The notes beneath the pieces are model-generated. The model had not been told where the DNA came from and searched no databases. It saw only the letters and a list, made by a program, of their open reading frames with translations. Both the position numbers and the translations under genes were made by a program. Of a DNA stretch of 64,000 bases, positions 3,640 to 52,716 are shown in pieces. How positions within the stretch are numbered: position 1 is the first letter of the stretch; every line of letters starts with the position of its first letter. The DNA is taken from the NCBI GenBank assembly GCA_016618385.1, contig JABFOP010000159.1, positions 502,555-566,554 on the forward strand. The letters run 5' to 3'. The stretch is from Nymphon striatum (lineage: Eukaryota).

Positions 3640-3959
3640 GTTTCGATCAGCCTAGATCGGAATAGGTTAAGTAAGGTTTGTTCGATTACAATAAATAGTT
3701 ATTATAATAACCTAATAATAATAATTGGAGGGTTAGGTTCCAAAGGAACCTGACTTAATCTAACCCTACACTCCTAACCTAATCCTTCAATTATTAAGGT
3801 AAATTAGTTAGTTAAATCCTATATTTCAATTAGAGAATTACAGTAAATAATAATAATTGAAGGGTTAGGTTAGAAGTGTTAGGTTAGGTTTTTATAATAC
3901 ATATTTATTGTAATCGAACAAACATTACTTAACCTATTCCAAACTATGCTGATCGAAAC
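3640..3959. mobile_element. MITE (about 320 bp) with about 55-bp terminal inverted repeats
   Basis: GTTTCGATCAGCCTAGATCGGAATAGGTTAAGTAAGGTTTGTTCGATTACAATAAATA at 3640 is the reverse complement of TATTTATTGTAATCGAACAAACATTACTTAACCTATTCCAAACTATGCTGATCGAAAC ending at 3959. The element has internal GGGTTAGGTT repeats. Confidence 0.6.
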
Positions 3960-5390: not shown

Positions 5391-5991
5391 CAAGCTTGAA
5401 ATTAAACATTCTAATATTTTGAAATGTGTTTTTTTTTAATCTACAGGCCGTAATTATCAAAATAAAAATAAAAAACTATTAGAAACATTTTAGTTTACAT
5501 GTAACAAGTCTGGAATATATACAATTTTCACTTTGTAAAATAACAGAAACAAAATATGGAACATTTTCACAATATTCTAATTTTTTGAGATGAACCTGTA
5601 TGAACCTGTATGAACCTGAGATTGTTACTAAAGCACCATTTTTTTTTTACTAACTTCACAATAAATTTTGGGCTTAATATTTAGCTTATTAAGTTAAAAT
5701 GTTATAAACACCAATAGACTAAGACACACATTTCATGATATGTTATTAGCCTTGAAACTTAAAGCATAAATTAGTTCTTGTAGAAGATAAAGTAGGCCGG
5801 CTTCTCTATTAAGATTTTTTTGCTGAAATGGTAGTAATGGTAGGTGTATTAATATACCATAATTTATTTGTCACACTTTCTTTATTATAATTATATTGAG
5901 ACTTGTATTTTATAAATATATTTGAATTTATAATGTCTTTGTAATTTCAGATTGCTTCTCTTGATTTGTTGCGGACTCAATTAACAGCAAA

Positions 5992-6141
5992 ATGAAGCTT
6001 TTGCCTAATTCAGTGAAAAATTCAGTTTTCAGCAAACAAACCTTCTTCTTAGACCTAACAAATGATGACAAATGCAACTTGAATGCTATCAAAGAAAAGA
6101 TTTTAAACAATGGTGGCTTTGTTACCACTAATCCATCAATA
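5992..6141 (+). CDS. PARP4: PARP4-like exon 1 (start codon; BRCT domain N-terminal half)
   Basis: The ORF from ATG 5992 encodes MKLLPNSVKNSVFSKQTFFLDLTNDDKCNLNAIKEKILNNGGFVTTNPSI. This resembles the human PARP4 BRCT N-terminus (..KKLQTDIKENGGKFSFSLNPQCTHII). The donor GTAATA lies at 6142 and the exon ends in phase 0. Confidence 0.6.
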
Positions 6142-6789
6142 GTAATAATTTGTGTTTTCTTTAAAATTGATTTATCTATTATATTAATTTATTAATGTAT
6201 TTAGACTTCATGAAGAAATGATTATTCTATTTATTAAGACCCCACGCCGCAAAAAAGTGTGCCAAATTTCAGCTGAGCTGGAAAAGTTGCAATAGTTTTT
6301 AATGTGTTTTGCTTTTTGCGACAAATTTACTACTTGAATATTACAGATGTGAAGTCGGAATTGAAATTGCTTCAGTAGATACAAAGTTATGGCTATTTTA
6401 GGTGTGGACCTTCAACTGCCTTTAAGTTGAAAATCTCTAGGAGAGCGCATTTCAACATCAAACAGCGATTCAGCATGATGTAGTTCCGAGGTTTTCAGGT
6501 TTCATTGTACCTACTAGGTACCATCTAATCAATCTTGTTCTTGTATCGTATTTTCTTAATTTCACTAAGTCTACTATTAATATATCAATTGGTGAATGTG
6601 TTGATCCTAAAATGATTAATTATTGAATTATAAGTTTGATTAATTTGACAAAGTTAAAGTTAACCTAAACAAAAGTTTTAATTTATTTCCAATTTGCTCT
6701 CTCTGCTATTACAAGGAAATTGTCAAATTTATTGTGTTGATTATGTTATATTCTGCAAAAAATGTCTATCCATTTCTTTTTTTCCTCAG

Positions 6790-11964: not shown

Positions 11965-12193
11965 GTAATTTCAATTAAATGCTTTTTTTTTATGACTAGT
12001 CTTTATATTGTTCCATTTTTACATTTTTTCTTACCCCATGTTTGCAAATATGTTATTCATAACTCATTCCTCTTTGATTTCTTTCAAAGAACACACTTTA
12101 GCTCTTGTAAATTTCACATAATTTCACATAATTTTATTAATAATCAAATATTTATAAGCTTAATTTAATAATCTATTTTTTTACATTATACAG

Positions 12194-12531
12194 ATAAATG
12201 AAGCTGAAGGAATTCTTCTAAGTATTAGAGAACGTCAAGTAGCGTGTGATTCCCATAAAAATTTGTGTGACCTCAGTCATCAGTTTTACAATTTGATTCC
12301 ACACCATGATAAGGCTTGCATTGAAACTCTCAGAGATGTTGTCAAGAAGCAGGAGTTATGTCAGTTAATTCGAGATGTCATTACTGTAAGTGAAACCACA
12401 GGATGGGATCTAAAATTTCAGACTCAATCAGCTTTATATAGAGCATTAAAATGTCAAATTGAATATATCAGTGAAGATGATCAGCGTTTTTATGACATTT
12501 CTGATCTGATATACCGTTCCCAGCATCATGG
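12194..12531 (+). CDS. PARP4: PARP4-like exon 7 (helical regulatory-like region)
   Basis: The exon encodes INEAEGILLSIRERQ...QELCQLIRDVITVSETT..ALYRALKCQIEYISEDDQRFYDISDLIYRSQHHG. This is strongly similar to the human VSKAEGILLLVKAAL...ADLCQLIRDMVNVCETN..AKYRALRCKIEHVEQNTEEF. The donor is GTATGT at 12532 and the exon ends in phase 2. Confidence 0.75.
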
Positions 12532-13776
12532 GTATGTCTTAATCTGAGATTGATTTATTATTCAAAGCTTTATTATTCATATCACAATATGGTGTGTTAT
12601 AACACTTCATACAGATGATATAGTAATTTTATTTTTTAATGATGGTGACAAGACGGCTAAAACACGGTATTGGTGCTGATCAGGTTTATCTTGTGTTATA
12701 TCAATGGCACAGAAAAAATATACAAGATAGGAACTAATTTTAAAGATTGACTAGCCTTGCAGTTACCTATCTCACTTCTCTGAAAATTTCAAGAGGCTAG
12801 TATTACCCATTCTTAAGATATGCATTGAAACATGCTCCAAAAATGGCCATTTTTTAGAGTTATGCAGTCTCACTTGAAAAAAAATGATATTATAAGTACA
12901 AAATACTCTAAATTTCAATAAGAAATGATACATAAATTGGTACGGTTTTATACAGACTTCTGTCCTGTAAGTTTTGCTGCATGAATTTATGAAATCGGTC
13001 ATAAATTATGGATTTATATGGTAAATACTATCAGCAGTGGTTTTGTTTAAACACTAAAAATCAAACATATGCTTGTTGTTATATTCCAATAATTGGTACA
13101 AAATAGCAGTTAATTGAACTTACATTGACATTAACCATTCAGTTATTTATTATGGTAAGCACAAAAAACATTCATGTTTCAGGGCTAGCCCTGGTTTAGG
13201 CATGAACAATTGTTCTTTGGTAAATATTGAAATTCAAAATTCGGTAGTGTCTGTAACCATTAAAAGTTTATGTTGCAATAGTTTCATTGTTTCTCATTTC
13301 AAAAGTATAAATCCTACACTGGCTAATGTGTATTCATGTAATGTCCAAGTTTGCCAAAATTTGTAGTGCTGTGAATTAACATCATTGAAAATTACTACTT
13401 TGAAAAGGTTACAGACACTACACAAAAAGTTACAGCAAAAGTGTCTATAACTTTTGTTATACCATAGGATGGAAATGGTGGATAAAAAAATGATGCATGC
13501 ATGTTCACGAAAAACTAAACTTGATTTGTGTAGGAGATACCCTTAACTTTGCAATTAACTCCAAAGAAATATGGTATCTAAAAATTCAATTTTTTGAGTA
13601 AGTGAGACTACTTTCAGCACCAATACCGTGTTTCAGCCGAGAGTCAATTTATTGTTCTTTCATTGCTATTAGATAGATGGAAAATTTAATGTTATGTGCA
13701 ATAATCTTATGAGACGATTCAGTTAATTAATTTCCATTATTTGGATAGAATATTTAATTTAATTTTATTTGTTTAG

Positions 13777-14013
13777 GAATTCATGTATTACCATTGATAA
13801 TATATATTCTGTTAATCGAATGATTGAAGCAAAACAATTCAACTCAAAAATCAGGAACATTAAACGACTTTTTCATGCTTCTGGGGTTGCAAATATTGTT
13901 GGAATTTTATCTAGAGGACTTTTGATGCCCAAAAAGTATGTTGAAGATATGGGAGGCAAACGAACAGATGCTGGCATGCTTGGCAGTGGTATATATTTCT
14001 CTGACTCTGCAAG
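13777..14013 (+). CDS. PARP4: PARP4-like exon 8 (PARP catalytic domain part 1; NAD+ site His and Tyr)
   Basis: The exon encodes ..RLFHASGVANIVGILSRGLLMPKKYVEDMGGKRTDAGMLGSGIYFSDSA. This matches the human RPLLHGSPVQNIVGILCRGLLLPKVVEDRGVQRTDVGNLGSGIYFSDS. It reads correctly only with the phase-2 acceptor at 13775-13776. The donor is GTTTGT at 14014. Confidence 0.85.
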
Positions 14014-14111
14014 GTTTGTTCTACATTTCAGTCTTTGTTGTTGTTAATTTTTACTTTTTTCTCAAATGCTTTGAAATTAATTCCTTTTTTTCTTTATTAT
14101 TTCTCTTCCAG

Positions 14112-14295
14112 TACAAGTTTAAAATATGCTAATTGTAGTAAAATAAAAGGTACACGGTTCTTACTTGTTCACGATGTAGCTCTTGGAAAAATATTTCAAA
14201 CATCAAAGTTTGATACCTGTCTGGATTGTGCTCCAGAAGGCTATGACAGCACCCATGGAGTAATGGATCAGTTTAATCAGAAATCAGATTTCAAG
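14112..14295 (+). CDS. PARP4: PARP4-like exon 9 (PARP catalytic domain part 2)
   Basis: The exon encodes STSLKYANCSKIKGTRFLLVHDVALGKIFQTSKFDTCLDCAPEGYDSTHGVMDQFNQKSDFK. This aligns to the human STSIKYSHPGETDGTRLLLICDVALGKCMDL..APPGYDSVHGV. The acceptor is CCAG at 14108-14111 and the donor GTAGTA at 14296. Confidence 0.8.
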
Positions 14296-14399
14296 GTAGT
14301 ATATTCTAATATGTGGAATTGTAACTGTTTCATTGACAAATGGACGTAGGCTGGACATTTGCCCTATAAAACATAACAAATGGACCACTTAAACCACAT

Positions 14400-14548
14400 T
14401 TTAGCTACTAGAAAAGGGGAAACCGTAGAGAAGGTGGATAGACGATATAGCTAAGTTTGACTGTGATTGTATGGAGAAAGCTGTTGATAGAGAGGACTGG
14501 AGATCTAAGAGGGAGGCTTTTGCCCAGTAGTGGGCCTAATTGATGATG
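14400..14548 (+). mobile_element. LINE (RTE-like) 3' end with (GATGAT)n tail
   Basis: ..GGAGGCTTTTGCCCAGTAGTGGGCCTAATTGATGATGATGATG matches the 3' end of the minus-strand RTE-like copy at 33698 and the copies at 58460 and 29095. Confidence 0.5.
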
Positions 14549-14643
14549 ATGATGTATCTGCATTACTTCACACCGTGAAACGTAGTGAAAGCATTTCAAA
14601 ATACACTTCCTAACTCAAATTTACCTTTTTTTAACCATATTAC

Positions 14644-15055
14644 ACGAAACTCATGGATTTATGGCAGGCTGAAGGTCATATCCATCCAAATAGATACAGT
14701 GCTTCTCTGTCAGAAGTACAACCCATGATGGGTAAGTCTTATTTCTCACGCTGAAGCCTAAAATTGGCAGATCTTGCTGGTGCTGCACTTCACCAGGACC
14801 TTCCACCCCACTATTCTTTGAAAAGCGATGTGTGTTCTTTAACATGCAGAGGGTGTGACCCTCATCTACACCGTACCTCCATTAACATCCCATCCAAGGG
14901 ATGGAGTATCTTCTCTCCTAAACCAGCCTTCATCTAGTATGAGAGAGGAAAGCAAGTGAATACAATGTAAAGGGTGCAAAAGTGGAGAGTCAAATATGAT
15001 TCGAACCTGGGTCAATGACGTCCTGAATGGAGATATTGTACCAGTTGGCCACCCG
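14644..15055 (-). mobile_element. tRNA-derived SINE, divergent copy
   Basis: The body is alignable to the copies at 45303, 53461 and 17581. The tRNA-like head lies at the right end (..GATTCGAACCTGGGTCAATGACG..). Confidence 0.55.
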
Positions 15056-15702
15056 TTCTTTTGTACTCACTTATGGGACAAGTGGAGCAATTAGAGGGAG
15101 ACAGTAAAGCAAATAGAGGGAGTAGTGTCAAACTAAGCAATTTTAAATGGGAATCAATGAAGTGAAATGTTCCTCATTTATAACAAATATAATTTGACTG
15201 TCAGCTCTACATAACAGGGCTCATCCTAGGGTCAAATTTTATGGAGAAATGAAGCAATTTAACGGAGAAGTGGGTGTTTGCAATGCGGATTTCTTCAACA
15301 TTATCTTGTCTAATGTGCACTCATTACAGTATGTAAAAACAACTTGGAGATATACCAGTACTTTAATATCTACTCTTAGCACTCAGTGTATTAATTGTGG
15401 TTCTAATGAAATGAAAATGTTGTATTTTCTAAACATTTTTTTTTAATTTTTTTTTTTTTTAAAAGCAAAGTCGATTTCGCCCCGATTAATTAAATATCGA
15501 AGTCAATCAACTCAAGGCGAAGTTATCGCCCGAATCGCCCTCTCGGATGAGCCCTGAATAAATCTGTTATTAGACTCTGTCAAGTTGTATTATATTTTAG
15601 GATTAATTTACACTTTCTTCGTTATAAGATTCATATGAGTTTTAAATATTTGTATGAGTAGTATAACTAGTACAAATTACTTTTCCTTAATGATTTATTA
15701 AA

Positions 15703-16046
15703 AATAAATAAGCTAAAATAACACAACATTTTGACGACGCCATTATCAAGTAAAAAAAAAAAAAAACCCTAAAACTATTATTCAAAAAACATTATAAAAT
15801 ATAAAATTCAAAAAGAACTGCTGAAAAGAAAAACAGTCATGTATAAATAGCAAAGAAGGGGGGGGGGGAATATTTTGTATTTTCCTCATACATGACTGTT
15901 TTCTTTTTCGGCAGTTCTTTGTGAATTTTATCTTTTATAATGTTTTTTGAATAATAGTTTTAGGGTTTTTTTTTTTTATTTTTTTTATTTGATAATGACG
16001 ATATGGCGTCGTCGAAACGTTGTGTAACTTTAGCTTATTTATTTTT
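15703..16046. repeat. foldback element: near-perfect 150-bp inverted arms around a poly-G loop
   Basis: 15703-15844 is the reverse complement of 15889-16046 (..TTGACGACGCCATTATCAAG.. / ..TTGATAATGACGATATGGCGTCGTCGAAACG..). The central loop carries G11. Confidence 0.65.
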
Positions 16047-16322
16047 AATAAAATGTTTGAAAAAAAGTACTTTTATCAGACTTAATGATTTACTCAAATA
16101 TAATTTCTAATTCTCTTCTTTTGTAACACAGATGTTAGATAAGCATTAAAATATAAATTCTTCCTTACAAATCCTGGAAAATTTCAGGAATACACTCTCG
16201 CAAGTGTAAAGAATTTAAAATTTTTACTATTTCTCTGTTTTGATTGATGAGCTACTTTCGTTCTTCCACTATTCTGGAGCATGACTTAATTTGTTACGTA
16301 ATTTTCCAATTTTAATTTCTAG

Positions 16323-16491
16323 GATGATGAATTTGTTATATATGATACCAATCAGCAAATAATGAGTTATCTTGTTGAATTCCACATTGAAGATGATACA
16401 CTGATACCAAGAAATCCTCTAATTTTAAACAGCAATGAGCCTGAACAAATGGAAATTAATGCTTTCGATGACAGCAATAGCAATAACATTT
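16323..16491 (+). CDS. PARP4: PARP4-like exon 10 (PARP catalytic domain part 3; catalytic Glu)
   Basis: The exon encodes DDEFVIYDTNQQIMSYLVEFHIEDDTLIPRNPLILNSNEPEQMEINAFDDSNSNNI. DDEFVIYDTNQ aligns to the human DDEFVVYKTNQVKMKYIIKF, which contains the catalytic glutamate. The acceptor is TCTAG at 16318-16322 and the donor GTAAGC at 16492. The exon ends in phase 1. Confidence 0.75.
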
Positions 16492-17039
16492 GTAAGCATT
16501 CTTAATTAATGCAAGTTCCTTTGAAAATTTGACCAACGTCTCTCTTACAAACATGTCTATAGAGTACTCATCTCTTTTGTTTGATGGTCAGTCCGACAAT
16601 AATAACATCTAAGAAATAGAGGATATGTAATGAGTTCCAATTTGATATTAGATTTGTGATGCAAGCCTTGGCGAGCAAAAATAAAACAATGGTAGCGAGT
16701 TTCACAAATCTCATATCAAATTGGAACGAATTACGTATCCTTTATATCACATAATATCTTTAAAACATTTAAAATAATTAAAAAACAACTTATGGATTCA
16801 ATTTCCATTTAAACATTTTTATATGTGACCAAACGACTCAATTTGTAGCATTGGTGTATAGTATAGATTACAATAATCCGCGTAAAAATAGTCCCGTTAA
16901 TTAAGAGATATTTAACAGTTCTACAAGAAAATATGTTAATATGACATATATTTTGAAATTGGTAATATCAATAACAATTATGCCTGAAACATATAATATT
17001 TAACAAACAATTTATAAAATTTCTACATTCATAGTAAAA

Positions 17040-17270
17040 AGCTTGACCATTCATTGGACCAATCAACTTGGAATTCAAAAAACTACATCTACAATTTATT
17101 ACATATTTGATAAAAATAATTAAAATTATTAAAAATGTGCACTTAAATTTAAAAACAAATAATAAACGTCATGTTTACGCATAGCAGGGAAACTGACTGG
17201 TACCTTCATAAATGTTACCATTTTCACCCACACTCCACATCCGTGAAGCGGGTCCCTGCACTAGTGTTAT
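17040..17270. repeat. repeat unit, inverted partner at 20500-20720
   Basis: The 17040-17270 sequence is reverse-complementary (over about 90%) to 20500-20720 (..CACTAGTGCAGAGACCCGCTTTGCGGATGTGGAATGTGGGTGAAAATGGTAACATTTATGAAGGTACCAGTC..). The two copies sit in introns flanking exons 11 to 13. Confidence 0.6.
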
Positions 17271-17580
17271 GATAAAGGACATGAGTGAGGGAGGATTAAA
17301 ATTGGAATTTAGAATCGTCTGGCATGCTAGTATTAGGTTCCACGATCCTGTACCGTATCTTTACTCCTTCTTTGATTTCAGTCTTGTAAGAACACATGTT
17401 TTGTAACATAAACAACAATAAATCAAATTTGAATTTACAAGTGGCATCAGTTATTGTGGTGCAACAGATGTCCAACAGTGTGTCAAATTCAGTTCAGAAC
17501 TTGCCAGTTTTAAAAATTGTTTGTTTTCTAGAAATTAGATAAAGAGCTGGGTACTTTTTTTATTTTTTTATCTTATTGCA

Positions 17581-17936
17581 GTCAACTTATATGGGTTTAT
17601 GGCAAGCTGGAGGCTTTGTCCATCCGACTGAATGCAGTGCCTCTCTGTTAGAACTACAAGCCATGGTGAGCGAGTCTTATTTCTCACACCGCAGTCAAGA
17701 ATAGGCATTCCTCACAGGTGCTACCCTTCACCGGGATCACCCTACTCTTTATTCAAATAGTGAAGTGTGTTCTTTAACGTGCAGAGGGTGTGACTCTCCT
17801 TTACACAGGACCTCCGTTTAACATCATATCTGAGGGACAGAGTATTTTCTCTCTAAAACCAGCCTGCATCCGGTATCAGAGAGGAGAGCACGAGAATACA
17901 CAACGTAAAGGGTGAAAAAGTGGTAGGGTTCGAATG
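17581..17936 (-). mobile_element. tRNA-derived SINE (head truncated), in intron between exons 10 and 11
   Basis: GTCAACTTATATGGGTTTATGGCAAGCTGGAGGCTTTGTCCATCCGACTGAATGCAGTG...GGGTTCGAATG is about 90% identical to the copies at 45303 and 53461. Confidence 0.7.
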
Positions 17937-18035
17937 TTATCTTTTGTATTATTGAATGTATTATCTTTTTGAAATATTTTATAATGATCTGAAATATTTT
18001 CGTTATTTAATATTTGAATCATTTTATTTTCTCAG

Positions 18036-18166
18036 CTGTGGATGATGCTTACAATGTTACGAATCCAAATGACAAAGTTGTATCTGGATTACAAAATAAA
18101 AAAGATGAAAAGATACCCCTCAACTACGTTTCCTTACAAATCAATGTTATTGATTCTATTGGAAAA
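18036..18166 (+). CDS. PARP4: PARP4-like exon 11 (linker before VIT)
   Basis: The acceptor is CTCAG at 18031-18035 (phase 1) and the donor GTAAGT at 18167 (phase 0). The exon encodes SVDDAYNVTNPNDKVVSGLQNKKDEKIPLNYVSLQINVIDSIGK. This resembles the human ..SGNLVPLEDVHIKGRIIDTVAQ. Confidence 0.6.
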
Positions 18167-18257
18167 GTAAGTCTAGGAGAATAATAACTTGAAAAAAGTT
18201 CAAATCAATAGTTATTTTGATAGATTAATGTTTAATCAAAGTATGTATATTTTCCAG

Positions 18258-18476
18258 GTTACAATATATCAAGAGTATAAGAATTATAGTAATGAAGCGA
18301 TAGAGGCAAAATATGTGTTTCCTCTGGACGAGTCTGCCGCTGTTTGTGGCTTTGAAGCATTTATCAATGAAAAACATGTCATTGGAGAAGTTAAAGAGAA
18401 AGAAACTGCTCATAAAGAATACAAGAAAGCTATTAGTGAAGGGCATGGTGCATATTTAATGGATGAAGAAAAACCA
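18258..18476 (+). CDS. PARP4: PARP4-like exon 12 (VIT domain)
   Basis: The exon encodes VTIYQEYKNYSNEAIEAKYVFPLDESAAVCGFEAFINEKHVIGEVKEKETAHKEYKKAISEGHGAYLMDEEKP. This is near-colinear with the human VIVFQTYTNKSHVPIEAKYIFPLDDKAAVCGFEAFINGKHIVGEIKEKEEAQQEYLEAVTQGHGAYLMSQDAP. The acceptor is TCCAG at 18253-18257 and the donor GTAAGT at 18477. Confidence 0.85.
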
Positions 18477-18603
18477 GTAAGTAACTATTTTACTGTAGAT
18501 TTTTTAACGCAAGTGGACTTCAAGTATATAACAAGATCAAAGCTTGAGTGGCTTACTGGTATAAGACCTTCTGTCTGGGCTGGAATGTCCCAGGTTTGAA
18601 TTT

Positions 18604-18912
18604 CATTCGAGCCCTCCACTCTTTACGTTGTGTATTTCAGTGCTCACCTATATGAAATCAGATGCGGGCTGGCTTAACAGAGAAAATACTCTGTCCCTTG
18701 AATAAATGGAGGTCGCATGTTGAAGAGAGTCGCACCCACGGCACGTTAAAGAACACACTTCACTACTCGAACAAGAATAGGGTGGAAGGTCCCGGTGAAA
18801 TGGAGCACTTGAAAGGCAGGCCATATCTTGGTTGCAGTGTAAGAAATAGAATTTTCCCACCAGTGCTTGAAGTTCTGACAGAGAAGCACAGCTTTCAGTA
18901 TAGTTGACACAG
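18604..18912 (+). mobile_element. tRNA-derived SINE (plus orientation, truncated), in intron between exons 12 and 13
   Basis: This is the reverse complement of the SINE body: CATTCGAGCCCTCCACTCTTTACGTTGTGTATT...GGGTGGAAGGTCCCGGTGAAATGGAGCAC.... It is inverted relative to the 17581 copy. Confidence 0.65.
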
Positions 18913-19009
18913 CCCCTAGCCTAATGACCTGCATGAGGGTTAGAAGGTGAAACCATATTTTTTTTTAGATTCGAGTTAAAACCTAGAATGGTCAGGTTTT
19001 TTGAGTAAC

Positions 19010-19485
19010 TTTTAATGATAAAATTTATTGCAATGAAACTTTCAAACTTAAAATCCATTATCCAAACAACTATTAAAAGAAAAATTAAACTCTTGACATT
19101 TCTACGCTAGCTTGCGTCATTATCAAGCTAAAGTAAAAGTATCTGTTCTAAAAGTTAGTATATACAGCAAAACCTGTAATGTACGGACCCTGAAATGGAC
19201 AGACACCTGCCATCTACGGACATAAATACCATGTACAGAGTGCAGTTCAATGTTAACCACCTGTCAAAAGCCACGCAGACAGCATTTTCCCAGCAATTTT
19301 CCTTGATTTTGCCACTTTTGCCAAATTCTATATATATTAACTTTTAGAACAGATACTTTTACTTCAGTTTGATAATGATACCAGCTAGCGTCGAAACGTC
19401 GAGTTTATTTTTTATTTTAATAGTTACTTGTTTTACCTTAATTTTACAATTTTTTTTGGCAATAAATTTTATCATTAAAGTGAAA
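19010..19485. repeat. foldback element, same family as 15703 and 35047 (arms 19010-19170 and 19325-19485)
   Basis: The arms are mutually reverse-complementary. They share the core TTGATAATGAYRCCAGCTAGCGTCGAAACGTCGAG with the other family members. Confidence 0.6.
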
Positions 19486-20277
19486 AAATAAAGAAATAGT
19501 GAAGTTGAGCTCAAAACTAAACTTGTCAAAAATTTGCATTTCACTGACAGTTGTGGACAAATAATCCCTTAGTGAGCTAAAAAAAACATACGCTTACAAG
19601 TTGCATGGCTCCTTTCATTTATTGAAAACTAACTTAATGTAAATGAATACTGTAGTTATTCGTGAGGAAAGTATATACTTCTTTGAAAACATTTATTGAA
19701 TAACTGACTTAGGATACATGATTAAAGAAAATAATTTGAATAGAAGGAGGAGCTAAGAAGTAGCAGTTAAGTAGAGTGAAATAAGATTAAAGATGAGTGA
19801 GGAAGGAATAAATTCTAGATCACTACATTACTAACATGAAAGTAATATTTGTTTCCTTATATTTAATATGGTGTTTGGTTGTGAATTAACTTTAAACAAT
19901 TAGTATTATCAATTTTGAAGGGACATTGTTGCTCACGACTCTGCATTATTTTGGTCTGACTATAAGTTGAAATGTTGATTATTATAATAATTCATTTCAC
20001 TATTCGAATAAGAGTAGGGTGGAAGGTCCCGGTGAAGTGAAGCACCTACGCGTCGTAATATGCCAATTCTTGGCTCCTGACAATATGTCTGGTCAGCATG
20101 TCAGTGGTACTGCCAAAATTCCTCAATGAAATTGAAGAGGGATATGTCCAGCAGTAAACTGCACCAATGTCCTAATACTGTATGAATGAATGATGATTCT
20201 TATATCTTAATTCAAGTTGCATATATGCTTTCTGTATGCTTATGAATTTTTATTTTATTATGATTTTCAACATTTAG

Positions 20278-20442
20278 AACATATTCATGGTACATGTAGG
20301 AAATTTGCCTGCAGGAGCAACAGTCATTATCAAGATTACATATGTGATTGAACTGCATGTTGAGGGAGATTATTATTTATTAAAGATTCCTAATTATGTG
20401 GCACCATGGGATTCATCTGCTTGTTTGGATAAAGAAAATCAG
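20278..20442 (+). CDS. PARP4: PARP4-like exon 13 (VIT domain continuation)
   Basis: The exon encodes NIFMVHVGNLPAGATVIIKITYVIELHVEGDYYLLKIPNYVAPWDSSACLDKENQ. This aligns to the human VFTVSVGNLPPKAKVLIKITYITELS..MPATVAPWQQDKALNENLQ. The acceptor is TTTAG at 20273-20277 and the donor GTAATT at 20443. Confidence 0.8.
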
Positions 20443-20499
20443 GTAATTTTCTAATATGTTTTATTTTCGAATCATGAAATATGTTGTTTGTTGTTTACA

Positions 20500-20720
20500 C
20501 TAGTGCAGAGACCCGCTTTGCGGATGTGGAATGTGGGTGAAAATGGTAACATTTATGAAGGTACCAGTCATTTTCCCTGCTATGCATAAACATGACGTTT
20601 ATTGTTTGTTTTTAAATTTAAGTGCACATGTTTAATAATTTTAAATATTTTTATCAAATATGTAATAAATTGTAGATGTAGTTTTTTGAATTCCAAGTTG
20701 ACTGTAAATAAGATAAAGAC
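20500..20720. repeat. inverted partner of the 17040-17270 repeat (partial tandem redundancy to 20960)
   Basis: See the entry at 17040. In addition, 20860-20960 partly repeats the 20640-20720 segment. Confidence 0.6.
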
Positions 20721-22905
20721 TACTCATATCCTGCTATATTTAAACGGTGTTTATTATTTGTTTTTAAATTTTATTCATGTTAACCCACATTTTTCACAAT
20801 TTTTTATAAAATATTCATTCAAGTCCATTTATACAAACAATTCTTAATAATTTTAATTATTTGCATCAATTATATAATAAATTGAAGACGTAGTTATTTG
20901 AATTCCAAGTTGATTCACGTGAACTGAAGATTAAGAAAAACACATTAAAATGATAATTACGTCGTATTTGTAAATGGACGCAGGAAAGCAATGTGACCAA
21001 AACATTTTCAGGACGGCAAGTTATTATGTACCAAAAAAAATCTCGTTGGTGAGTGGCGTAGTTTAAGAAATCTTAAACCTTGCAGATGTTTTCTTACACA
21101 TTTATATATGTATTAGATGTTGCAACAGCTCAGCTGCATAGCTGTTTTGGCTACTGATTTTTGGTTTCATTTTATTCATTTGTTAACTAGTAGTTACATT
21201 TACTAGTAACATTTTACTTGTAACATTTGCTGCCCATTCACTATTCATTATTTCTTTTCGTATTATCATGCTTTCCTCTCTGAATCAGATGTAGGCTAGT
21301 TCGGATGAGAAAATACTCCGGCTCTTAGGAAACCGCCGTGCCACTGCAGGTAGAGAGCTCGTTTGTGAAGTATTGGTTTAGCGGCCGCTACTCTGAACTA
21401 TAGTTTGATCCCCATAAGTGTCAGTGGTGGATGTTAGGAAGGGCGTCTAGTCATAAATGGTTTCCTCGCCACGAGAAAAAGTTTTAATAAGGACATGGCC
21501 GATCCCTCAAGGGACTAAGGTGAAGAAGAGTCTTGTATGAAAAATTAATAGTATTTTTTGTATATTTTTCTTTTAAGATTTGAATATCATCATTAAAGAA
21601 GGCCGGGTAGCCGAGTAGATAAAACATCTTTCCATTTATGTGTCTGATTGATTCAGGTTCAAATCTCACTCCAACCTCTCATTTGCTATTCTTTCTTTAC
21701 TGCTGTGTATTATCGTGCCTTCCTCTCTGAATCAGATGCAGGCTGGTTTAGATGATGAGAAATACTCTGTCCCTAGAAAAGTACGTTAATAGAGGTCCTG
21801 TGTAAAGGAGAGCCATAACCTATACACGTTAAAAAACCCACTTCACTATTTGAAGAAGAGTAAGTTAGAATGTCCCTGTGATGTGGAGCACCTGCATAAC
21901 TCATTAGAAGTCGTATGAGTCTCGGCAGAACTCGACAGAACTCGGCAGAACTCAGGACTTATTTGAACTCCATTAACATTTGATAATGGGTTATGAGCTA
22001 TCGGTCATCAAACACAAATTTGATGCAACTTGTAATGAGCTATACCTGCTGTGCCACGGCTTCAATATCTTCAATATGAACCAAGTACCATAAAGAATTC
22101 AATTGAGGAAACTATCTTGTGCTGATAAGAAAGACAAATGAGTGAAAAAGGTTTTGAAATCAATGGTAGTGTGAATTAAGTCCTTGACTTAATTCACACT
22201 ACCTAGAGACTAGGTGGAAAGCTCGAAGGCTTGCTGCAGGGTGAGCAGCAAGCTAGAGATCAGTCCATGTTTGTAGTGGAGGTTCTGAAAAAATGTGTAT
22301 TTCCATAAGTTGCTGGTCGATTTGGATTACGTCTGTGCACAACTTGATAGTAATATAAATTGTTCTGAAAAAATGGTCCAGGATAGTTAAACTGGATTAA
22401 ATTTGTGAATACTGGATTGGAGACAGTCGTGAATAGGTAAATTTGTCCCAATCTCTGGATTCTGGATTCTGGACTTGATTACTGGTAACAAATTAACTGG
22501 AGACAAATCTTAGCCCGTAGGATTTTTGTTCCATTAAGTTAAAAGAAGTTATATTGTTGAATAAAAACTCAGGAGCTCCAAGCACATGAAGATCTTGAAG
22601 CGAAACTTGTGGAGCTCCGAGTATATAAAAGTCTTGAAGTGAACTTATCTTTTTGATGAGAAAACCGTACTTTTATTCGTTTGAAGTACAGCTGCGAGGT
22701 TCATAGACCCCTCCTCATATGCTAATCACTTGACACGGCACCTCTCGCACCGCACTGGGAGAGAGTGTGAACATTTGTTTACGACAAAATAAAACATTAT
22801 AATTAGGAACAAAGTCCATCGCTAGGAGGTTATAGTCATTTTACTACCAATTGTCTGATAAACAATCCTGTGTTGATTTGTTTTTATACTGATTTTGTAT
22901 GGCTA

Positions 22906-25089
22906 TAGTCCGGGAGCCAACTGCCATTTTTCCCCTTAACCTTGCATTGTTGTATTAAGTTTTTTTTACTGTTGATTTTGGTAGCCTAGGGTCTCTATTT
23001 TCAGAAACTGCTTGATGACATGTTGTCACCTTTGAGCAATTTGAGAAATTCAAGATGGCGTCCAAGATGATATAAATGACCATAACTCCCTACCTGTTCA
23101 TCATAGGAAGGTGATTTTTGTCTCTATACCTAGGTTTTAGGGGTCAAGCTATCCATTAGAACTAAGTATTATGTTAATATCGTATTACATAATGGTAATT
23201 TCCAAGATGAGTCTGTGAAAGACTATATAGCGAACTTCAACTATGCCATAGGAAAAAGGTTACGGGTCGAGTACGTGTATCTGATATTTGACAGATATTA
23301 TGATTACAGCACGAAAAGTGTTACCAGAGGATCTAGGGCAACTGGTGTCAGTAGGGCTCATCATTTGCAAGTCAACAGTAAACTTCCAGCGCAGAAGATT
23401 CTACTAACCTCTTCCAAAAACAAGAAGCAACTGATGCAACTGATAGTTGATGATTTTGTCCAGGATAAGAAGTTTCACGAGGACAACACACAACATTACA
23501 AGTTAGTGGTAACAGGAGCAGATCCGGTGCCAATCGAAATCAGTGAAGGTGGAGTTGTCATCTCACGGGCAGATCTGTCAACTTCACACGAAGAAGCAGA
23601 TAACGTCATTGTCCAACAGGTGTTGAGTTGTGCCGCGGAAAATGCAGAAAGCAAAATCACTGTTGTTGCCGATGACACTGACGTCTTTGTACTGTTGTTG
23701 TATTATCATCACATGGCAAATCTCAAGAATGTTGTATTGATGGAGTCCCCATCAAAGGAAGGGCGGTGCTTGATATAGGCAAAACTGTGCAGAAGCATTG
23801 TCAGATAGTCGAAGGAATACTCCCGGCACATACACTTTCTGACTGTGACACCGTCGCCTCCTATTTTAAAATTGGAAAGGCTACTGTACTCAAAACACTT
23901 CGATCGGGGCACTCACTTAACTTGTTGGGTGCACCAGGGCATTCTATGGAATCTGTTATTCAACAGGCTACCTCCTTCATTTCCGCGTGCTATGGACAAA
24001 CAGACTGTAGTACAATGTCAGAGACAAGGTTAAAGGTATGGCTGTCACAAACAGGCAAAGGGTCATCAACACTGAAGTTGTGTACCTTGCCACCAACAAC
24101 TGAGGTATTCAAAGAGAAGAGCTCACTATCAGGCTTTGGTATGGCGGTCACTGAAAGCGCAGAATCCACCCGAGTTGGACTCAACGGAATATGGTTGGGT
24201 AAAGGATGACCAAAACAAGTCCCTTCAACCAGTCACCCTACCTGATGAAGTCGAACTAGCCCCACAGATGGTACTACGTCTAATAAAATGTGGATGCCAC
24301 AGTACTACTCCATGCAGTTCACGTGCTTGTAGTTGCAACTCTGCAAACATGAAATACACAATATTTTGCGCCTGCTATAATCAGGGTTGCTGTAACCTGA
24401 CATCATAGCTGATTGCATGTCTTTGTGATGCACATGAGCAACACAACGTACAACAGTGTAGATTATTTGGTAAAGTGGTAGCCATCCTTAATTATGACTT
24501 GTATAATATGCTTTTGGTAGTCTGTGAGAATTCAGATTTACAATTAAAGAACATTTGTTATAATATAACACCTGTGGTCGTTTACCTTTTCATATTTTCC
24601 ACCAAGATTGAATAGTATAGAAGATATACCAGTGCTTGTAAACTGGCAGCCATCTTGGATTTGTAGATGACATCATCAGTATATGAACTTTGATCTGATA
24701 CAGATAGATGTGTCTCCAAAATACTCAGGGATAGACACCTTCACGACTAATTTGGAGTAAATAGTATATATGCCAGTTTTAGTGTTACGGCGGCCATCTT
24801 GGAAATTACTATTATATAATACGATATAAACATAGTACTTAGTTCTAATGGATAGCTTGACCCCTAAAACCTAGGTATAGAGACAAAAATCACCTTCCTA
24901 TGATGAACAGGTAGGGAGTTATGGTCATTTATATCATCTTGGACGCCATCTTGAATTTCTCAAATTGCTCAAAGGTGACAACATGTCATCAAGCAGTTTC
25001 TGAAAATAGAGACTCTTGGCTACCAAAATTAACAGTAAAAAAAAAATTAATACAACAATGCAGGGTCAACCATCTCTGCCCCCGGACTA
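22906..25089 (+). mobile_element. TIR DNA element (about 2.2 kb, about 230-bp terminal inverted repeats) carrying a PIN-like and CXC ORF
   Basis: 22906-23170 is the reverse complement of 24836-25089 at about 95% identity. The flanks are GGCTA|TAGTCCGGG...CCCGGACTA|CTAAG, suggesting a target-site duplication of CTA or TA. Internal ORFs at 23215-24408 are in three frames. Confidence 0.65.
23215..24408 (+). CDS. TE-borne ORF: PIN/FEN-like nuclease-type acidic motifs plus C-terminal Cys-rich CXC-like module (frameshifted or spliced)
   Basis: The ORF spans three frame segments (23215-23778, 23766-24209, 24136-24408). Motifs include SHEEADNVIVQQV, VVADDTDVFVLLLYY, SDCDTVASYFKIGKATVLK and CGCHSTTPCSSRACSCNSANMKYTIFCACYNQGCC. 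The PIN-like reading comes from the motifs only, and I could not assign a family. Confidence 0.45.
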
Positions 25090-25296
25090 CTAAGTAAACC
25101 GCTTTATTTGTTTTGATAAAAAGTTTCATACATCAATCCGTGTGATGAGTACTATAGCTATGTAATTTAGTTTTAAAAATTGTTTCACAGCTAGTTAAGT
25201 TATCATAATTTAAGAGATTAAATTTGGATAAATTTTATGCAACAATCCTTCGCCTGTAATTATTTTTTCTTTATCTTATGTTCTTTAAAATTGCAG

Positions 25297-25413
25297 ACAA
25301 CTGTGAAATCAAAAAGTAATCAAGATGGTAAACCCCAATGGGATGTCGAAGGAAGTATAATGATGAACTGTGAAATTTTTGACATTGGTTCTAATTTTTT
25401 TTTGAAAAAGAAA
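25297..25413 (+). CDS. PARP4: PARP4-like exon 14 (VIT-vWA linker; boundaries tentative)
   Basis: The acceptor is TTGCAG at 25291-25296 and the donor GTTAGT at 25414, both phase 0. The exon encodes TTVKSKSNQDGKPQWDVEGSIMMNCEIFDIGSNFFLKKK. The similarity to the human ..SLTMSIEMPYVIEFIFSDTHELKQKR is weak but colinear. One upstream exon (human DTVEKICIKEIGT..) was not found. Confidence 0.45.
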
Positions 25414-25959
25414 GTTAGTTTTGAATTAAATTTTTCATTTATTTATATTTATATTATTTAATCCATCTATTTTTTTCCTCTGCACATTCATCTTCAATCC
25501 ACTTTTATCCTGTATAATAAGGGGTATTTGGGCAGAATTCTTACAAACGCATCTATTGACCGCTTCAGAATGAGTTGTAGGTTGTTTGTATTGATGGAAT
25601 ATATTTTGATTAAATATTTTAAATGACATGACTGGATGAGGAGGGTATTATTCAAAAGTCTTGAATGTGAAGGAACGGAAAGTCGAACTTGTTTTCTGAA
25701 ATAATAGGAAGACTGAGTGATCAAAAATGAACTTCAATTGCTGTGCAAGTGGAAGACATCAAGTGTGAATGTTTGGAGGACTTTGAGCAAATCCTTTTTT
25801 TCATATTTTTGTAATAAGGAATTTATTAATGTGAAGGGACGGAACGATAAAATTGCCTAATTAAAAAGAAAGATGATCGATCGTCCCTGTTTAAAGGAGA
25901 ATTTCAAGTACATTTATATCATCTTCTCAAATAGTCTAATTACTTTTATTTTTTTTCAG

Positions 25960-26103
25960 TTATGTGGCCGTTCAGTCATGTTTGCCAAGAATTCTGACGA
26001 TCAACAAAAGATTAGTAAAGAGGGATTTCATTTATATATATTTATTGATGAAATATATGTTCCTCGCTTGTGGGTAGAAACGCATCCAGAAACCAAAACA
26101 AAG
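25960..26103 (+). CDS. PARP4: PARP4-like exon 15
   Basis: The exon encodes LCGRSVMFAKNSDDQQKISKEGFHLYIFIDEIYVPRLWVETHPETKTK. This aligns to the human TDCKAVISTMEGSSLDSSGFSLHIGLSAAYLPRMWVEKHPEKESE. The acceptor is poly-T followed by CAG at 25957-25959 and the donor GTATTT at 26104. Confidence 0.7.
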
Positions 26104-28300: not shown

Positions 28301-28394
28301 CTAGCCACTTTGTTTTATATTTAAAGTGTGTTCAGTCTGTGCATTTTCCTATGTCATAATTGTTCTCGATTTTAATTCTCGGTATGCATTTTAG

Positions 28395-28581
28395 GCTTGC
28401 ATGATGACATTTTATCCAGACTTCAAATGTCAACAGATAAAACCTCATGAAGTTCTGATTGTTATTGATGCATCAAATTCAATGAAGTTGGATGCATTTG
28501 AAAATGCTGTGAAGCTAAGTCTCCTTTGTTTGAGACTGCTTAGTTATTCAACATCATTTAATGTTGTTGCGTTTGGATCTG
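28395..28581 (+). CDS. PARP4: PARP4-like exon 16 (vWA domain; MIDAS-type DxSxS motif)
   Basis: The exon encodes ACMMTFYPDFKCQQIKPHEVLIVIDASNSMKLDAFENAVKLSLLCLRLLSYSTSFNVVAFGS. This aligns to the human ACMLVFQPDLDV..EVIICLDCSSSMEGVTFLQAKQIALHALSLVGEKQKVNIIQFGT. The acceptor is TTTTAG at 28389-28394. The exon ends in phase 1. Confidence 0.85.
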
Positions 28582-33331: not shown

Positions 33332-33697
33332 GTATCTTAAACCAATTTTTACGAGATAAACTGACATCTTGTAAAATGTAAAATAAAGAAGCCAATCAAA
33401 TAAAATGTTTCGCCCGAATAGAATTGTATGGGTTTAAGGTCACATATGTAGATCATTTCATATACACCAGACAATCAAACTTGGTCTTACATTTTTTCAG
33501 CACTTTGAATAGGTGATCAATGGGGTCTGTCCACAATGTGTTCTGATGATAAGTGCCTTCCCAATCACAGAGTTGTTGTGTTCACTGATATGTTGGTGGA
33601 GGTTTCGGGTGGTGTACCGAACATAAAATTATGCACAATGCAGTGGTCATTGATAATGGGGAAGCTGGGCACAATGAATCAAAACCTAATGAGGGCA

Positions 33698-34330
33698 ACA
33701 AGCCAGAGATTGTGAGCATCATCATCATCATCATCAGCCCATATTGGCCCACTGCTGAGCAAAGGCCTCCTGTCTAGATCTCCAGTCCTCTCTATCGGCA
33801 GCTCTTTCAACTCAATCCCTGTCAAACTTGTGTATTGAGATAAGCTGTCCTAAATAAATATATCTATCAACTTGGTCCAAGGCCACATTTCCTGTCATAA
33901 TGGGTTGGATTTCCACGTTTCTGTTAAACATGACCTTAGTCTTACTCAAATTAATCTCTAAACCTACTTTATTACTGGCAGTTCTCAGTTCCTCAACCAT
34001 AAGTTGAAGCTCCTGAGGGGACTTTGAGAACAGGACTACATCGTCGGCGAACCTGAGGTTGATCAGTCTATCGCCATTTATGGGGATTCCTTTCGAAGTC
34101 CAGTTTAGGCATCTAATTACATTCTCCAAGCAAGCTGTAAATAGTTTTGGAGATATGGAATCTCCTTGTCTCATTCCTTTCTCTAATCTAATCTTATTTA
34201 TATTGGTATGAAGCTTTATATTAGAAGTTCCAAGTCCAAAAATTTGGTCCAGCATTCTTATGTATAACTCCAGTGTTAGATGCTAATCAACCAAGAGAGC
34301 AGGCAGGATTTAGAAGCGGGTTTTCAACCA
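33698..34330 (-). mobile_element. RTE-like LINE fragment (reverse-transcriptase motifs, 3' UTR and (CATCAT)n tail)
   Basis: The minus-strand ORF 33812-34255 encodes ..GMRQGDSISPKLFTACLE...INLRFADDVVLFSKS..ELQLMVEEL (RT motifs including FADD). (CATCAT)n and GCCCACTGCTGAGCAAAGGCCTCC lie at 33712-33780. The element sits in the intron between exons 21 and 22. Confidence 0.65.
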
Positions 34331-35046
34331 TGGGTTTTCAACCATCTCCTAGTGATTATTTTGGTAAATAGTTTATATATACAAGAAAGGAGGCTAATAG
34401 GGCGATAGTTGGCCAAATTTAATTTATCTCCCTTCTTGAAGAGCAGTAAAATAATGTGAGCATACCACTGCCATTTAAAATCCAACGATCATCTGATCAA
34501 CTCTAAAAAGAACTTTCGACTCTCATTAGGAAAATGGTGTGAACCTGCAGCCTGTCTTCACAGACAAGAAGTTGAACCAAGTTCTAGTTTAAACGAGCGA
34601 AAGCCTCCCCCCCATCACCAATAGCCACTGCATTGTGTGTAATTTTAAATATGACTTGTGTGATGCAAGTTATGTTGAGTACACCACCTGACACCTCCAT
34701 CAATGCACAAGTGAACACAAGAACTCATTGATTGAGAAGCACTTGTCGTCACTTATCAAAATACAGTGTGGCAGATCATCACCCATTGATCGATCGCCTG
34801 TTCAAAGTGCTGAAAAAATGCAAGACCAAGCTTGACTGTATGATATATGAAATGATCTACATCTGTGACCTTAAACCCAAGTTGAACATCAAAAGTGATT
34901 CTATGCGGGTGAAACTTTTTATTTGATTGGCCTTTCTTTCACATTTTATAATATGTAATATCTTGTCAGTTTATCTCAATTTTTTCTCTCTTAATTTTTT
35001 TTCTTTTAGCTTTTTATTCAGCTTATTTGAATGTTTGTAAAAGTTT

Positions 35047-35215
35047 TTCTATATATACCAACTTTTAGAACAGATATCACTTTAGCTTGATAGTGACACC
35101 AGCTAGCGCTGAAACGTCATGAGTTTATTATTTGTTTATTTAATCTACTTGTTCTACCTCAATGGATTTTAAGTTTTACAGTTTTTTTTTGTAATAAATT
35201 TTATCATTAAAAGTT
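35047..35215. repeat. solo arm of the foldback family (15703/19010)
   Basis: TTTTAGAACAGATATCACTTTAGCTTGATAGTGACACCAGCTAGCGCTGAAACGTCATGAG... is about 85% identical to 19336-19480. Confidence 0.5.
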
Positions 35216-37258
35216 TCTATTTATGTTGTCGTAAATCCATGATGCTCCTGTCTTTATGCCTTCATACATTCTTTTCCTTGAGTGTGAAGTCCAATCTCGA
35301 TATGCAGCTAATTTACAAAGTTGTGTATTGTGCTATTTCACACATTAATTGATAATGCTTGATTCCTAAGCTTTATGCGTGAAGAAAATAGTTTTTAAGT
35401 TGTGCTAGATATTTCATATCTATTGCCACTTCCAGTTATGAGTGGGACAAATGTGTCCGGAGAAAATTCTAACATGATACAGGGGTTCCATTAGTTTTGA
35501 AAGTAGGAGGTAGTGGTATAGTGACGAGCGCAAGCGAGGCTAGAAAAAATGTTCTCCGTTGATACCAAAAAGAACTTTTTGAGTACTTAAATTATTAAAG
35601 TAATAACTGCTTTTATTGGATGCAGATTTGATTGCATGAGATTTTGAAGTGATTTATTTAACAATATCCTTCGTTACTTAATCAGTTAGTGGAGGGCGAC
35701 GGAGCAGGAAGCCATCAATTTGCTGGCTCATATAAGTTCCCATGTAAGATGGGGTAAAGGGGAGTGCAATAGCAAATATCAGATGTCAGAATTACTAAAA
35801 TTTAGTAGTGGTAGGGAGTTCAGTCACCAAGACCAATGTTTAAGAAATTGTGTTTAAAAGGAAAACAGCAGTTTAAGCATTCTTTTAAAAAAATAATGAA
35901 GTAAATCGCTCCACTGGATACAATTTTATAGCTAAATGAAGATTTCAATAATTGCTCTTTTTGAAGAAAATTCCCTCAAAAGACACAAGGGAAATGTATA
36001 GCCTAATTCAAAGACAATGGCACCAATTAGTGCCAGAAGGATCTGGCACTAACCATGTTGTATTTTCCCGCACAGGACAGATACGAAAACCAGGCAACTT
36101 CTACGACATTCTGCTGGGAATTTTGAAGAATTCTATATATAACACGATAGGTTTTGTGGTTCAAATTACAGGAGGATTAACACACGAAATAGGGTATCCC
36201 CGTAAAATGTTGCCTAATCATGGTGCCGTGTAGCGATCACGCGCGAAACATTTGCTCAGTTCAGATACAAAATTAAGCAACCCAAACACATCGTAGCTTA
36301 ACTAAACATATTTTATTTAAGATATACACATCTTCTTTATATCTAATCATAATATAAATGCTAAAAACTTTTTTTTTATGGGATAACTTGGCGCCTAAAA
36401 AATAGGTGTATATGAGAGATTCACCACCAATGTGATGCCATTAGGCTGGCTGACTGAACTCCCTAGTAGTGGTTATCACCGAATGTAAATAAACTGGCAA
36501 AACGCAAATGATGTCGCCAAATGGCATAAATCTCATAATATGTCATATCAGATGGTTAAATCGAAATTAGAATGAATTATCGTTTGTCAAGTTTAAAATG
36601 ATATGTGAAATCGATGGGGAAAAAGAATTTCGGACTTTTTTTTACAGTAAATATGGAATGTGAAATAGGTCCGATATCGGCTATCGAAAAACCCCTTTAC
36701 CCCTCCCCTTCATATAAAGATTTATAAGTATTTGTCCACATGATCTTTGAAGTCATTCATAGTTTTTGCCTCGATGGCCTTTCGTAATACTAGTATTACT
36801 CATTACGAAAAAGTATTTTTTTCTTTTACTTTTTTTTTAATGTGGAAGTAGACGGCTCTATTATTAAATATGGCGGCTATTTTAGCCGCTAGCCGCTTTT
36901 AAACGACATGTCTGTGATATATTCATTAGAACCAGTGAATAAGTGATGCATAATTTTATTGACTGAAATTTAAGAGTAAATCATTCTTCATAAACAACCA
37001 CATTATTTTAAATGTAGAAAAAAAGGAAAGTGTCAATATTTTTTGCTGTTTTATTTTTTCTGAATCTGTTAGTAAGTTAAATATTAAAAAAGTGACAGAA
37101 TTTGAATTTTTTATAAGAGATATTTTATTTGACTTCTCAAAATATTGACAGTGTTTGAATTGATGTTTAGATTATTATAAATGTAAAAATAAAAGATAAG
37201 TGGTTTTTGTGCTAATTCTATTAGATTTATGCAATTTTAAATTTACAGACTGATCAAG

Positions 37259-52138: not shown

Positions 52139-52141
52139 TGA

Positions 52142-52638: not shown

Positions 52639-52716
52639 GTAAATTTTTTCATTATTCATTATTTTTTCATTTACTGAATCTTTCACATATAGAAATATTT
52701 TTTCTTGTTTTATCAG

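Follow-up and report, generated by a model that had tools for sequence, protein, structure and literature searches.

Introns around the VIT-domain exons of a PARP4-like (vault PARP) gene contain two nested pairs of inverted repeats in a 64-kb stretch of contig JABFOP010000159.1 (positions 502,555 to 566,554 of the forward strand), which is hereafter called the window and whose first letter is position 1. The gene lies on the plus strand. The outer pair is formed by two copies of an AT-rich repeat of ~210 nt, one in intron 10 and one in the intron after exon 13, and the inner pair by two tRNA-derived short interspersed elements (SINEs) in introns 10 and 12. We consider it somewhat probable that neutral insertions have here produced a textbook intron-pairing architecture, with low-level circular RNA (circRNA), skipped mRNAs and editing or unwinding of the duplexes as its consequences. 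The locus is best regarded as an ordinary candidate for a known mechanism.

Two nested inverted pairs bracket the VIT exons

Exons 10 to 13 are numbered as in an earlier sequence-only reading of this DNA, a numbering that is plausible, and their borders were verified manually and through translation. Exon 10 (16323-16491), 169 nt long with a phase 1 end, codes for the last part of the PARP catalytic region and a linker. Exon 11 (18036-18166, 131 nt) carries the acceptor that is the candidate upstream back-splice site, exon 12 (18258-18476, 219 nt, phase 0 to 0) encodes the VIT core, and exon 13 (20278-20442, 165 nt, phase 0 to 0) encodes the C-terminal part of the VIT domain and carries the donor that is the candidate downstream back-splice site of the outer pair. 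All four exons lie on the plus strand with AG/GT borders and mutually consistent phases, in agreement with the sum of 131+219+165 = 515 nt that had been claimed for exons 11 to 13. The acceptor of exon 11 (ttttattttctcag/C) and the donors of exon 12 (CCA/gtaagt) and exon 13 (CAG/gtaatt) are all canonical. Introns 10, 11 and 12 measure 1544, 91 and 1801 nt, respectively. That exons 11 to 13 (18036-20442) encode a VIT domain, as the sequence-only reading had proposed, was borne out by a Pfam match to their translation (E = 1.8e-36), and the closest named homologue of the VIT peptide in a protein search was a PARP4-like protein of Crassostrea gigas (58% identity), a match from which the host was judged to be probably a mollusc or some other lophotrochozoan. 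An exact look-up of the exon 12 open reading frame returned no entry.

The arms of the outer pair (17060-17267 and 20497-20704) were found by inverted-repeat search to be complementary over 208 nt at 95%, ungapped and 3229 nt apart (blastn E = 2.5e-93), and 3 of their 10 mismatched positions are G-U compatible. The reverse complementarity between introns 10 and 13 that had been described from the letters is therefore real, but the extent given for it (230 bp, 17040-17270 and 20500-20720) is not, as its distal ends lie ~20 nt too far; once the flanks are aligned, the shared unit measures ~212 nt (about 17058-17270 and 20494-20706). The left copy (17058-17270, minus strand, core 17060-17267) is located in intron 10 at 768 nt from the exon 11 acceptor, and the right copy (20494-20706, plus strand, core 20497-20704) in the intron after exon 13, beginning only 54 nt past the exon 13 donor. 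Both full copies have identical sharp boundaries, ACACTAGTGCAG... and ...GAATTCCAAGTTGA, within unrelated flanks. A third copy (20730-20915, plus strand) is partial and interrupted and stands in direct orientation to the right arm. It has one end in common with the full copies, as expected of a discrete mobile unit, and over its final 76 nt it is 89% complementary to 17061-17136, which makes it a weaker alternative partner for the left arm.

The ends ACACTAGTGCAG and GAATTCCAAGTTGA are not mutually complementary, no terminal inverted repeat (TIR) is recognizable at the copy ends, no target-site duplication is recognizable flanking the copies, and no RNA polymerase III (Pol III) boxes were seen in the repeat. 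These features do not identify the repeat as a miniature inverted-repeat transposable element (MITE) or a TIR DNA transposon, and it is left unclassified. A CACTA-like or Helitron-like terminus (CACTAGTG, with a small hairpin) was weighed and considered too weak to claim. A reading of the 208-nt arms as TIRs of a single transposon around the exons was also rejected, since the termini that the arms share point in the wrong direction and the exons between them belong to the gene itself and follow their normal order.

The SINE of the inner pair is, judged by its sequence features, a genuine tRNA-derived family. At least 10 full or partial copies with 69-92% identity occur in the window, and their consensus is ~430 nt long and non-coding, with an A-rich 3' tail in four copies. 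The 5' head contains an exact Pol III A box (TRGCNNAGTGG) and B box (GGTTCGANNCC) with tRNA-like spacing; this pattern is exact at 45667-45718 and 53858-53909, in the two youngest copies, with 0 occurrences expected in shuffles, and the head is also visible in the family alignment. Neither ARAGORN nor the Rfam tRNA model recognized the head as a tRNA, for which it is too degenerate, and an Rfam scan of 14000-24000 yielded nothing significant.

In intron 10, the SINE (17556-17940, minus strand) is antisense and 5'-truncated without the tRNA-like head; an A-rich tail occupies 17556-17580, and 95 nt separate the end of the copy from the exon 11 acceptor downstream. Its identity is 92% to the copy at 53502-53855 and 90% to the copy at 45313-45664. 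The copy in intron 12 (about 18547-18940, plus strand) is in sense orientation, belongs to a diverged subfamily with the tRNA-like head, and starts ~70 nt downstream of the exon 12 donor. The two copies represent different subfamilies and are only ~75% alike; they align by blastn over 313 nt at 74.8%, confirming that they are mutually inverted as had been noted; the limits originally given for them (17581-17936 and 18604-18912) were too narrow. The inverted-repeat search split the pair, which brackets exons 11 and 12, into pieces that are 73-83% complementary. As a separate observation, the antisense tail of the intron 10 copy presents a U-rich run followed by CAG, an acceptor-like site, at 17572-17581, and a donor-like GTGAGC occurs at 17666; the Alu-style cryptic exon between them (17582-17665, 84 nt) would contain an in-frame stop.

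Both pairs are predicted to form strong duplexes

We examined the pairing of these repeats in the pre-mRNA by folding. The duplex of the outer arms spans 208 bp with a predicted energy of -315 kcal/mol, compared with -31 and -40 kcal/mol for the self-folds of the arms and -49 ± 5 kcal/mol for shuffled partners. The folding check that had been suggested for the intron pair thus came out in favor of pairing, and the stem is also present in the minimum-free-energy (MFE) fold. For the SINE pair, the cofold reached -400 kcal/mol with self-folds of -98 and -98 kcal/mol, and the duplex -386 kcal/mol against -148 ± 8 kcal/mol for shuffles, its longest unbroken helix being 25 bp. In the MFE fold of 16492-21000 the outer and SINE stems are both present and nested. 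Folds of partial transcripts showed that the SINE stem already forms in the transcript up to 18960, and that the left outer arm is half unpaired or weakly, locally structured until the right arm is transcribed.

Repeat searches of the window found no inverted partner of the ~210-nt repeat or of the SINE copies within their own introns. The inverted pairs that do lie within single introns (16613/16702, 19011/19328 and 22936/24795) are unrelated elements. Among them, a MITE-like element (19004-19479) with arms of ~155 nt at 19011-19167 and 19328-19479 (80%) lies wholly in intron 12, and it folds on itself in the MFE structure (self-fold -130 kcal/mol) without competing with the cross-intron pairs. 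Since the predicted duplexes are strong and nested, no within-intron competitor exists and the splice sites are canonical, the folding models indicate that the cis requirements for repeat-driven back-splicing are present at this locus. The SINE pair may be more effective than the outer pair despite its lower identity, because it is nearer to the splice sites and its halves would be transcribed no more than ~1 kb apart.

The repeats are absent from an orthologous locus

For comparison, we used a 22.7-kb ENA contig from another species (L001) that contains the orthologous gene. The exon layout is the same in both, and the identity to the window is 82% at the amino acid level for exon 12, 33% for exon 11 and 51% for exon 13. 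In L001, however, introns 10, 11 and 12 are ~410, 415 and 290 nt long, and neither the SINE nor the ~210-nt repeat was found in it. Flanking inverted repeats are absent there; across the 5-kb region, a 43-nt pair within intron 10 was the single inverted repeat found. The repeats in the window are therefore lineage-specific insertions, which have expanded intron 10 to 1544 nt and intron 12 to 1801 nt, rather than a conserved feature of the gene. The orthologous locus itself is compact (8100-10620 of L001): PARP_reg to VWA occupies ~4.8 kb compared with ~16 kb in the window, which shows the extent of the expansion by transposable elements (TEs). Two further loci of other species, L003 and L004, which were retrieved through the protein of a transposon in the intron after exon 13, likewise contain neither the ~210-nt repeat nor the SINE.

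The sequence similarity between the paired copies is far beyond chance, but the inverted orientation of two copies is not (prior 0.5). The gene is rich in repeats, and inverted pairs are common there. A census of the window returned 33 inverted pairs at E <= 1e-10, of which 11 combined a length of 80 nt or more with a distance of under 10 kb between the arms. Among the inverted pairs of the window, the 208-nt pair ranks second in strength, behind the 275-nt, 96% identical TIRs (22936-23209 and 24795-25069) of a DNA transposon after exon 13.

Expected RNA products and comparison with known systems

In the explanation that we favor, the intron insertions would be ordinary, neutral mobile elements that came to lie in opposite orientation by happenstance. 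The two repeat pairs would form nested intron-intron duplexes in the pre-mRNA, the outer one looping out exons 11 to 13 (515 nt) and the inner one exons 11 and 12 (350 nt), and each duplex would place its downstream 5' splice site beside the 3' splice site of exon 11. From these predicted structures, we infer duplex formation in vivo and three outcomes. Some circRNA, probably at a low level, would be produced with junctions from 20442 to 18036 and/or from 18476 to 18036; minor skipped mRNAs would be frameshifted and cleared by nonsense-mediated decay (NMD); and the duplexes, as substrates of ADAR and helicases, would be edited or unwound.

Indeed, when exon 10 is joined to the exon at 25960 or to exon 13, the frame shifts and stops appear within a few codons, so the earlier claim that skipping of exons 11 to 13 would frameshift holds, while skipping exon 12 alone or exon 13 alone keeps the frame. 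The further step taken by the sequence-only reading, that a circRNA is the more plausible outcome because skipping frameshifts, does not follow, since the frame decides the fate of the product and not the choice of splice sites. In Caenorhabditis elegans, complementary matches in flanking introns promote, and are required for, back-splicing, and they also promote skipping of the same exons (PMC8330042), so that the two products would be expected together. The more general proposal that intron pairing favors circularization or skipping agrees with every testable cis feature, but the orientation of the copies is at the level of chance and the arrangement is not conserved in L001. Work with constructs showed that repeats of ~40 nt are enough, and that ADAR and DHX9 counteract pairing (PMC12218527). 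As in C. elegans zip-2 (PMC8330042), the flanking matches in the window would favor two outcomes for the exons between them, back-splicing and skipping. The zip-2 match, in contrast, is 13 nt long and conserved across nematodes, whereas those described here span 208 nt and ~310 nt, are TE-derived and are absent from L001.

Pairs of inverted Alu elements (IRAlu) reportedly flank circularized human exons, a complementary-sequence-mediated circularization that Jeck in 2013 and Zhang in 2014 are said to have described. Exon circularization of the IRAlu type is reviewed in PMC12218527. The locus in the window resembles IRAlu loci in having oppositely oriented SINEs in two introns that flank an exon block, in having several alternative partners from which alternative circles are predicted, and in that cross-intron pairing is not out-competed within the introns; as with IRAlu, its duplex would be a substrate of ADAR and DHX9. 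It differs in that the SINE here is tRNA-derived and ~430 nt long while Alu is 7SL-derived, the families being unrelated, and in that the SINE copies here are just ~75% alike and the strongest pair is an unclassified ~210-nt repeat rather than a SINE. The host is moreover an invertebrate, and the circle is predicted from sequence.

The circRNA of Drosophila laccase2 is said to be driven by inverted DNAREP1 transposon fragments near its splice sites, a result attributed to Kramer in 2015. The laccase2 introns are mentioned in PMC12218527. Both cases concern an invertebrate gene with inverted, transposon-derived repeats in its flanking introns within ~100 nt of the back-splice sites, the distances here being 54 nt for the right outer arm and 95 nt and ~70 nt for the SINEs. 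However, the left outer arm lies 768 nt from its acceptor, and laccase2 involves a single, experimentally proven exon whereas the block here comprises two or three exons and is predicted.

Human circPARP4 is reported in glioblastoma, as cited in two sources (PMC8796413, PMC10572686). In human, the orthologous host gene thus reportedly yields a circRNA, suggesting that PARP4 pre-mRNA is not refractory to back-splicing. Any repeats flanking the human circle would be Alu elements of independent origin; the likeness is therefore an analogy and gives no evidence of homology between the circles.

If back-splicing were shown, the locus would add one more circRNA based on transposon-derived intronic complementarity, in a poorly studied lineage and in a vault PARP gene. 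It would also offer a natural test of competing nested pairs, with a 95% pair of 208 nt placed around a 75% pair of ~310 nt. At present the locus raises no new question, and its value lies mainly in annotation: TEs have lengthened the introns surrounding the VIT exons, and pipelines for RNA-seq should be prepared for circular, skipped or hyper-edited reads from this region.

Alternative explanations

The arrangement may instead be inert, which is a real possibility although the less probable one: the duplexes would not be productive in vivo, and neither a circRNA nor a skipped isoform would be detectable. Rapid co-transcriptional splicing of introns 10 to 12, coating by RNA-binding proteins, DHX9-like unwinding or ADAR editing could account for this. 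Several points weigh against productive pairing and in favor of inertness. The orientation is 50:50 for two insertions, so that random TE insertion would be expected to yield such an arrangement half the time, and the arrangement is not conserved in the L001 orthologue. The left outer arm, at its distance of 768 nt from the acceptor, would be made ~3.2 kb ahead of the right one, intron 10 could splice out first, and intron 11 is just 91 nt long. In addition, most circRNAs of flies, worms and yeast are reported without flanking complementary repeats, those of flies and worms being mostly independent of them, and ADAR and DHX9 suppress repeat-driven circles (PMC12218527). For molluscs and lophotrochozoans, our literature search yielded no study of circRNAs in relation to complementary flanking repeats. 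For these two reasons, the rule that repeats drive circularization may be weaker in this lineage.

Other points also temper the favored explanation. The circRNA is a predicted one, and an MFE fold of an RNA as long as 4.5 kb represents a co-transcriptional, protein-coated pre-mRNA only poorly. Furthermore, other SINE copies (14610-15052, 21597-21929 and 19993-20047) permit alternative pairings. The copy in intron 9 (14610-15052, minus strand) has the same orientation as that in intron 10, and a SINE-related copy (21597-21929, plus strand) lies in the intron after exon 13. A second cross-intron pairing around exons 11 to 13 is offered by 17715-17910 and 21695-21894 (81% complementary), while 14699-15052 with 18548-18889 (69%) would bracket exons 10 to 12 and 14775-14964 with 21706-21896 (74%) would bracket exons 10 to 13. 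With such partners available, a family of possible circles is predicted and not a single circle.

Points against inertness are the exceptional length and stability of the duplex of the outer arms (208 bp at 95%, -315 kcal/mol), the position of the duplexes near splice sites and the lack of within-intron competitors. Repeats of ~40 nt are already sufficient in constructs (PMC12218527), and in an invertebrate complementary matches are required for circRNAs (PMC8330042). Productive, low-level pairing of neutral insertions remains the explanation that we favor over an inert arrangement.

A very unlikely alternative places the event at the DNA level, where the arms would be the footprint of a local inverted duplication and could mediate inversion of the 3.2-kb segment with the VIT exons by inverted-repeat recombination. 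The window contains two full copies and one partial copy of the ~210-nt repeat, spread over no more than 3.9 kb, and an nhmmer search detected no further ones. Because they cluster in this way, the repeat may represent either a dispersed TE family or a local inverted duplication. A metagenome contig scan yielded a single unrelated contig with a chance 21-mer match only, and the copy ends, as described above, show no recognizable target-site duplication or TIR, which would also suit a local duplication. The lack of other copies means little, however, as the searched collections exclude this genome, and a spacing of 3.7 kb or less between two independent events in 64 kb has p ~0.1, which is not compelling. 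The full copies share sharp boundaries at both ends and the third copy at one end, as for a discrete mobile unit, their flanks are without similarity, and exons 11 to 13 stand in the correct order and orientation. These features argue against a local rearrangement.

It is less probable still, and highly improbable overall, that the 208-nt pair is a regulatory device maintained by selection or gene conversion, in which back-splicing or skipping tunes the output of PARP4 or the circRNA itself is functional. Such a device could be read from the 95% complementarity of the arms, which makes this the second-strongest inverted pair in 64 kb, from the 54 nt that separate the right arm from the exon 13 donor, from the circRNA reported for human PARP4, and from the fact that losing exons 11 to 13 or 11 and 12 frameshifts the mRNA and introduces early stops, which could serve as an off-switch. 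However, the repeats are absent from the orthologous introns of L001, a recent insertion explains the high identity equally well (the TIRs of the nearby transposon are 96% identical), and there are no compensatory changes to examine. The repeat arrangement shows no sign of selection or function. The strongest form of this idea is a maintained and regulated switch, made up of the 208-nt pair and the nested SINE pair together, in which pairing excises the VIT exons as a circle (515 or 350 nt) and the remaining frameshifted mRNA is degraded. It is hardly credible, although, if true, it would let dsRNA-modulating factors (ADAR, helicases) set vault-PARP output and would represent the first repeat-driven circRNA/NMD switch to be functionally defined beyond vertebrates, flies and nematodes.

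Gene architecture and other elements of the window

The gene was assigned to PARP4 because the domain order along the window, BRCT - PARP regulatory - PARP catalytic - VIT - VWA, is that of the PARP4 architecture. Besides the VIT domain, matches were obtained to BRCT at 5965-6192 (weak, E = 0.036), PARP_reg at 12164-12544 (E = 6.4e-06), the PARP catalytic domain at 13763-14346 (E = 6.7e-11 and 4.1e-06) and VWA_3 at 28302-28490 (E = 1.2e-07). Downstream of exon 13, the next recognizable exon (25960-26103, plus strand) carries a VPRLWVE motif and is in frame with exon 13. Exon 14 of the orthologue contains an MPFDIR..CPTHK motif whose conservation extends from L001 and C. gigas to VIT-VWA proteins of bacteria, and no counterpart of this exon was found in 20443-25959 by tblastn, a small hidden Markov model, tblastx or a motif scan. 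Since direct splicing from exon 13 to 25960 keeps the frame, exon 14 may have been lost, or diverged past recognition, in this species.

The intron after exon 13 also contains the DNA transposon at 22906-25095 with its 275-nt TIRs. This transposon carries frameshifted open reading frames (ORFs) at 23134-24405 on the plus strand, for which no Pfam match was found. At the protein level, large ENA contigs from other species match them at 85-91%, and 'hypothetical proteins' from fish, a crab and an insect at ~50%; several copies of the transposon occur in L003. A related copy of the MITE-like element of intron 12 occurs at 35043-35218. In intron 10, a small hairpin (16613-16748) has 47-nt arms that are 87% complementary and a 42-nt loop, and its single Rfam match is a non-significant one to a miRNA precursor (MIR1888, E = 0.72).

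Elsewhere in the window, ARAGORN predicted two tandem tRNA-like genes (2274-2346 and 2411-2483) with an odd 4-base anticodon loop (catg), which may be tRNA-derived repeat heads or pseudogenes. Long plus-strand ORFs at 51410-52844 are repetitive and rich in G/F/S/P/Q (GFSFGS..., NLGFG...) without a Pfam match, and they could be a low-complexity exon of the PARP4-like gene or of a neighboring gene. Finally, four close inverted pairs with arms 0.2-1 kb apart, at 55476-56705 (115 nt, 96.5%), 42805-43960 (66 nt, 95%), 33364-34956 (~290 nt, 76%) and 3640-3959 (76 nt, 91%), look like further TIR-bearing non-autonomous transposons.

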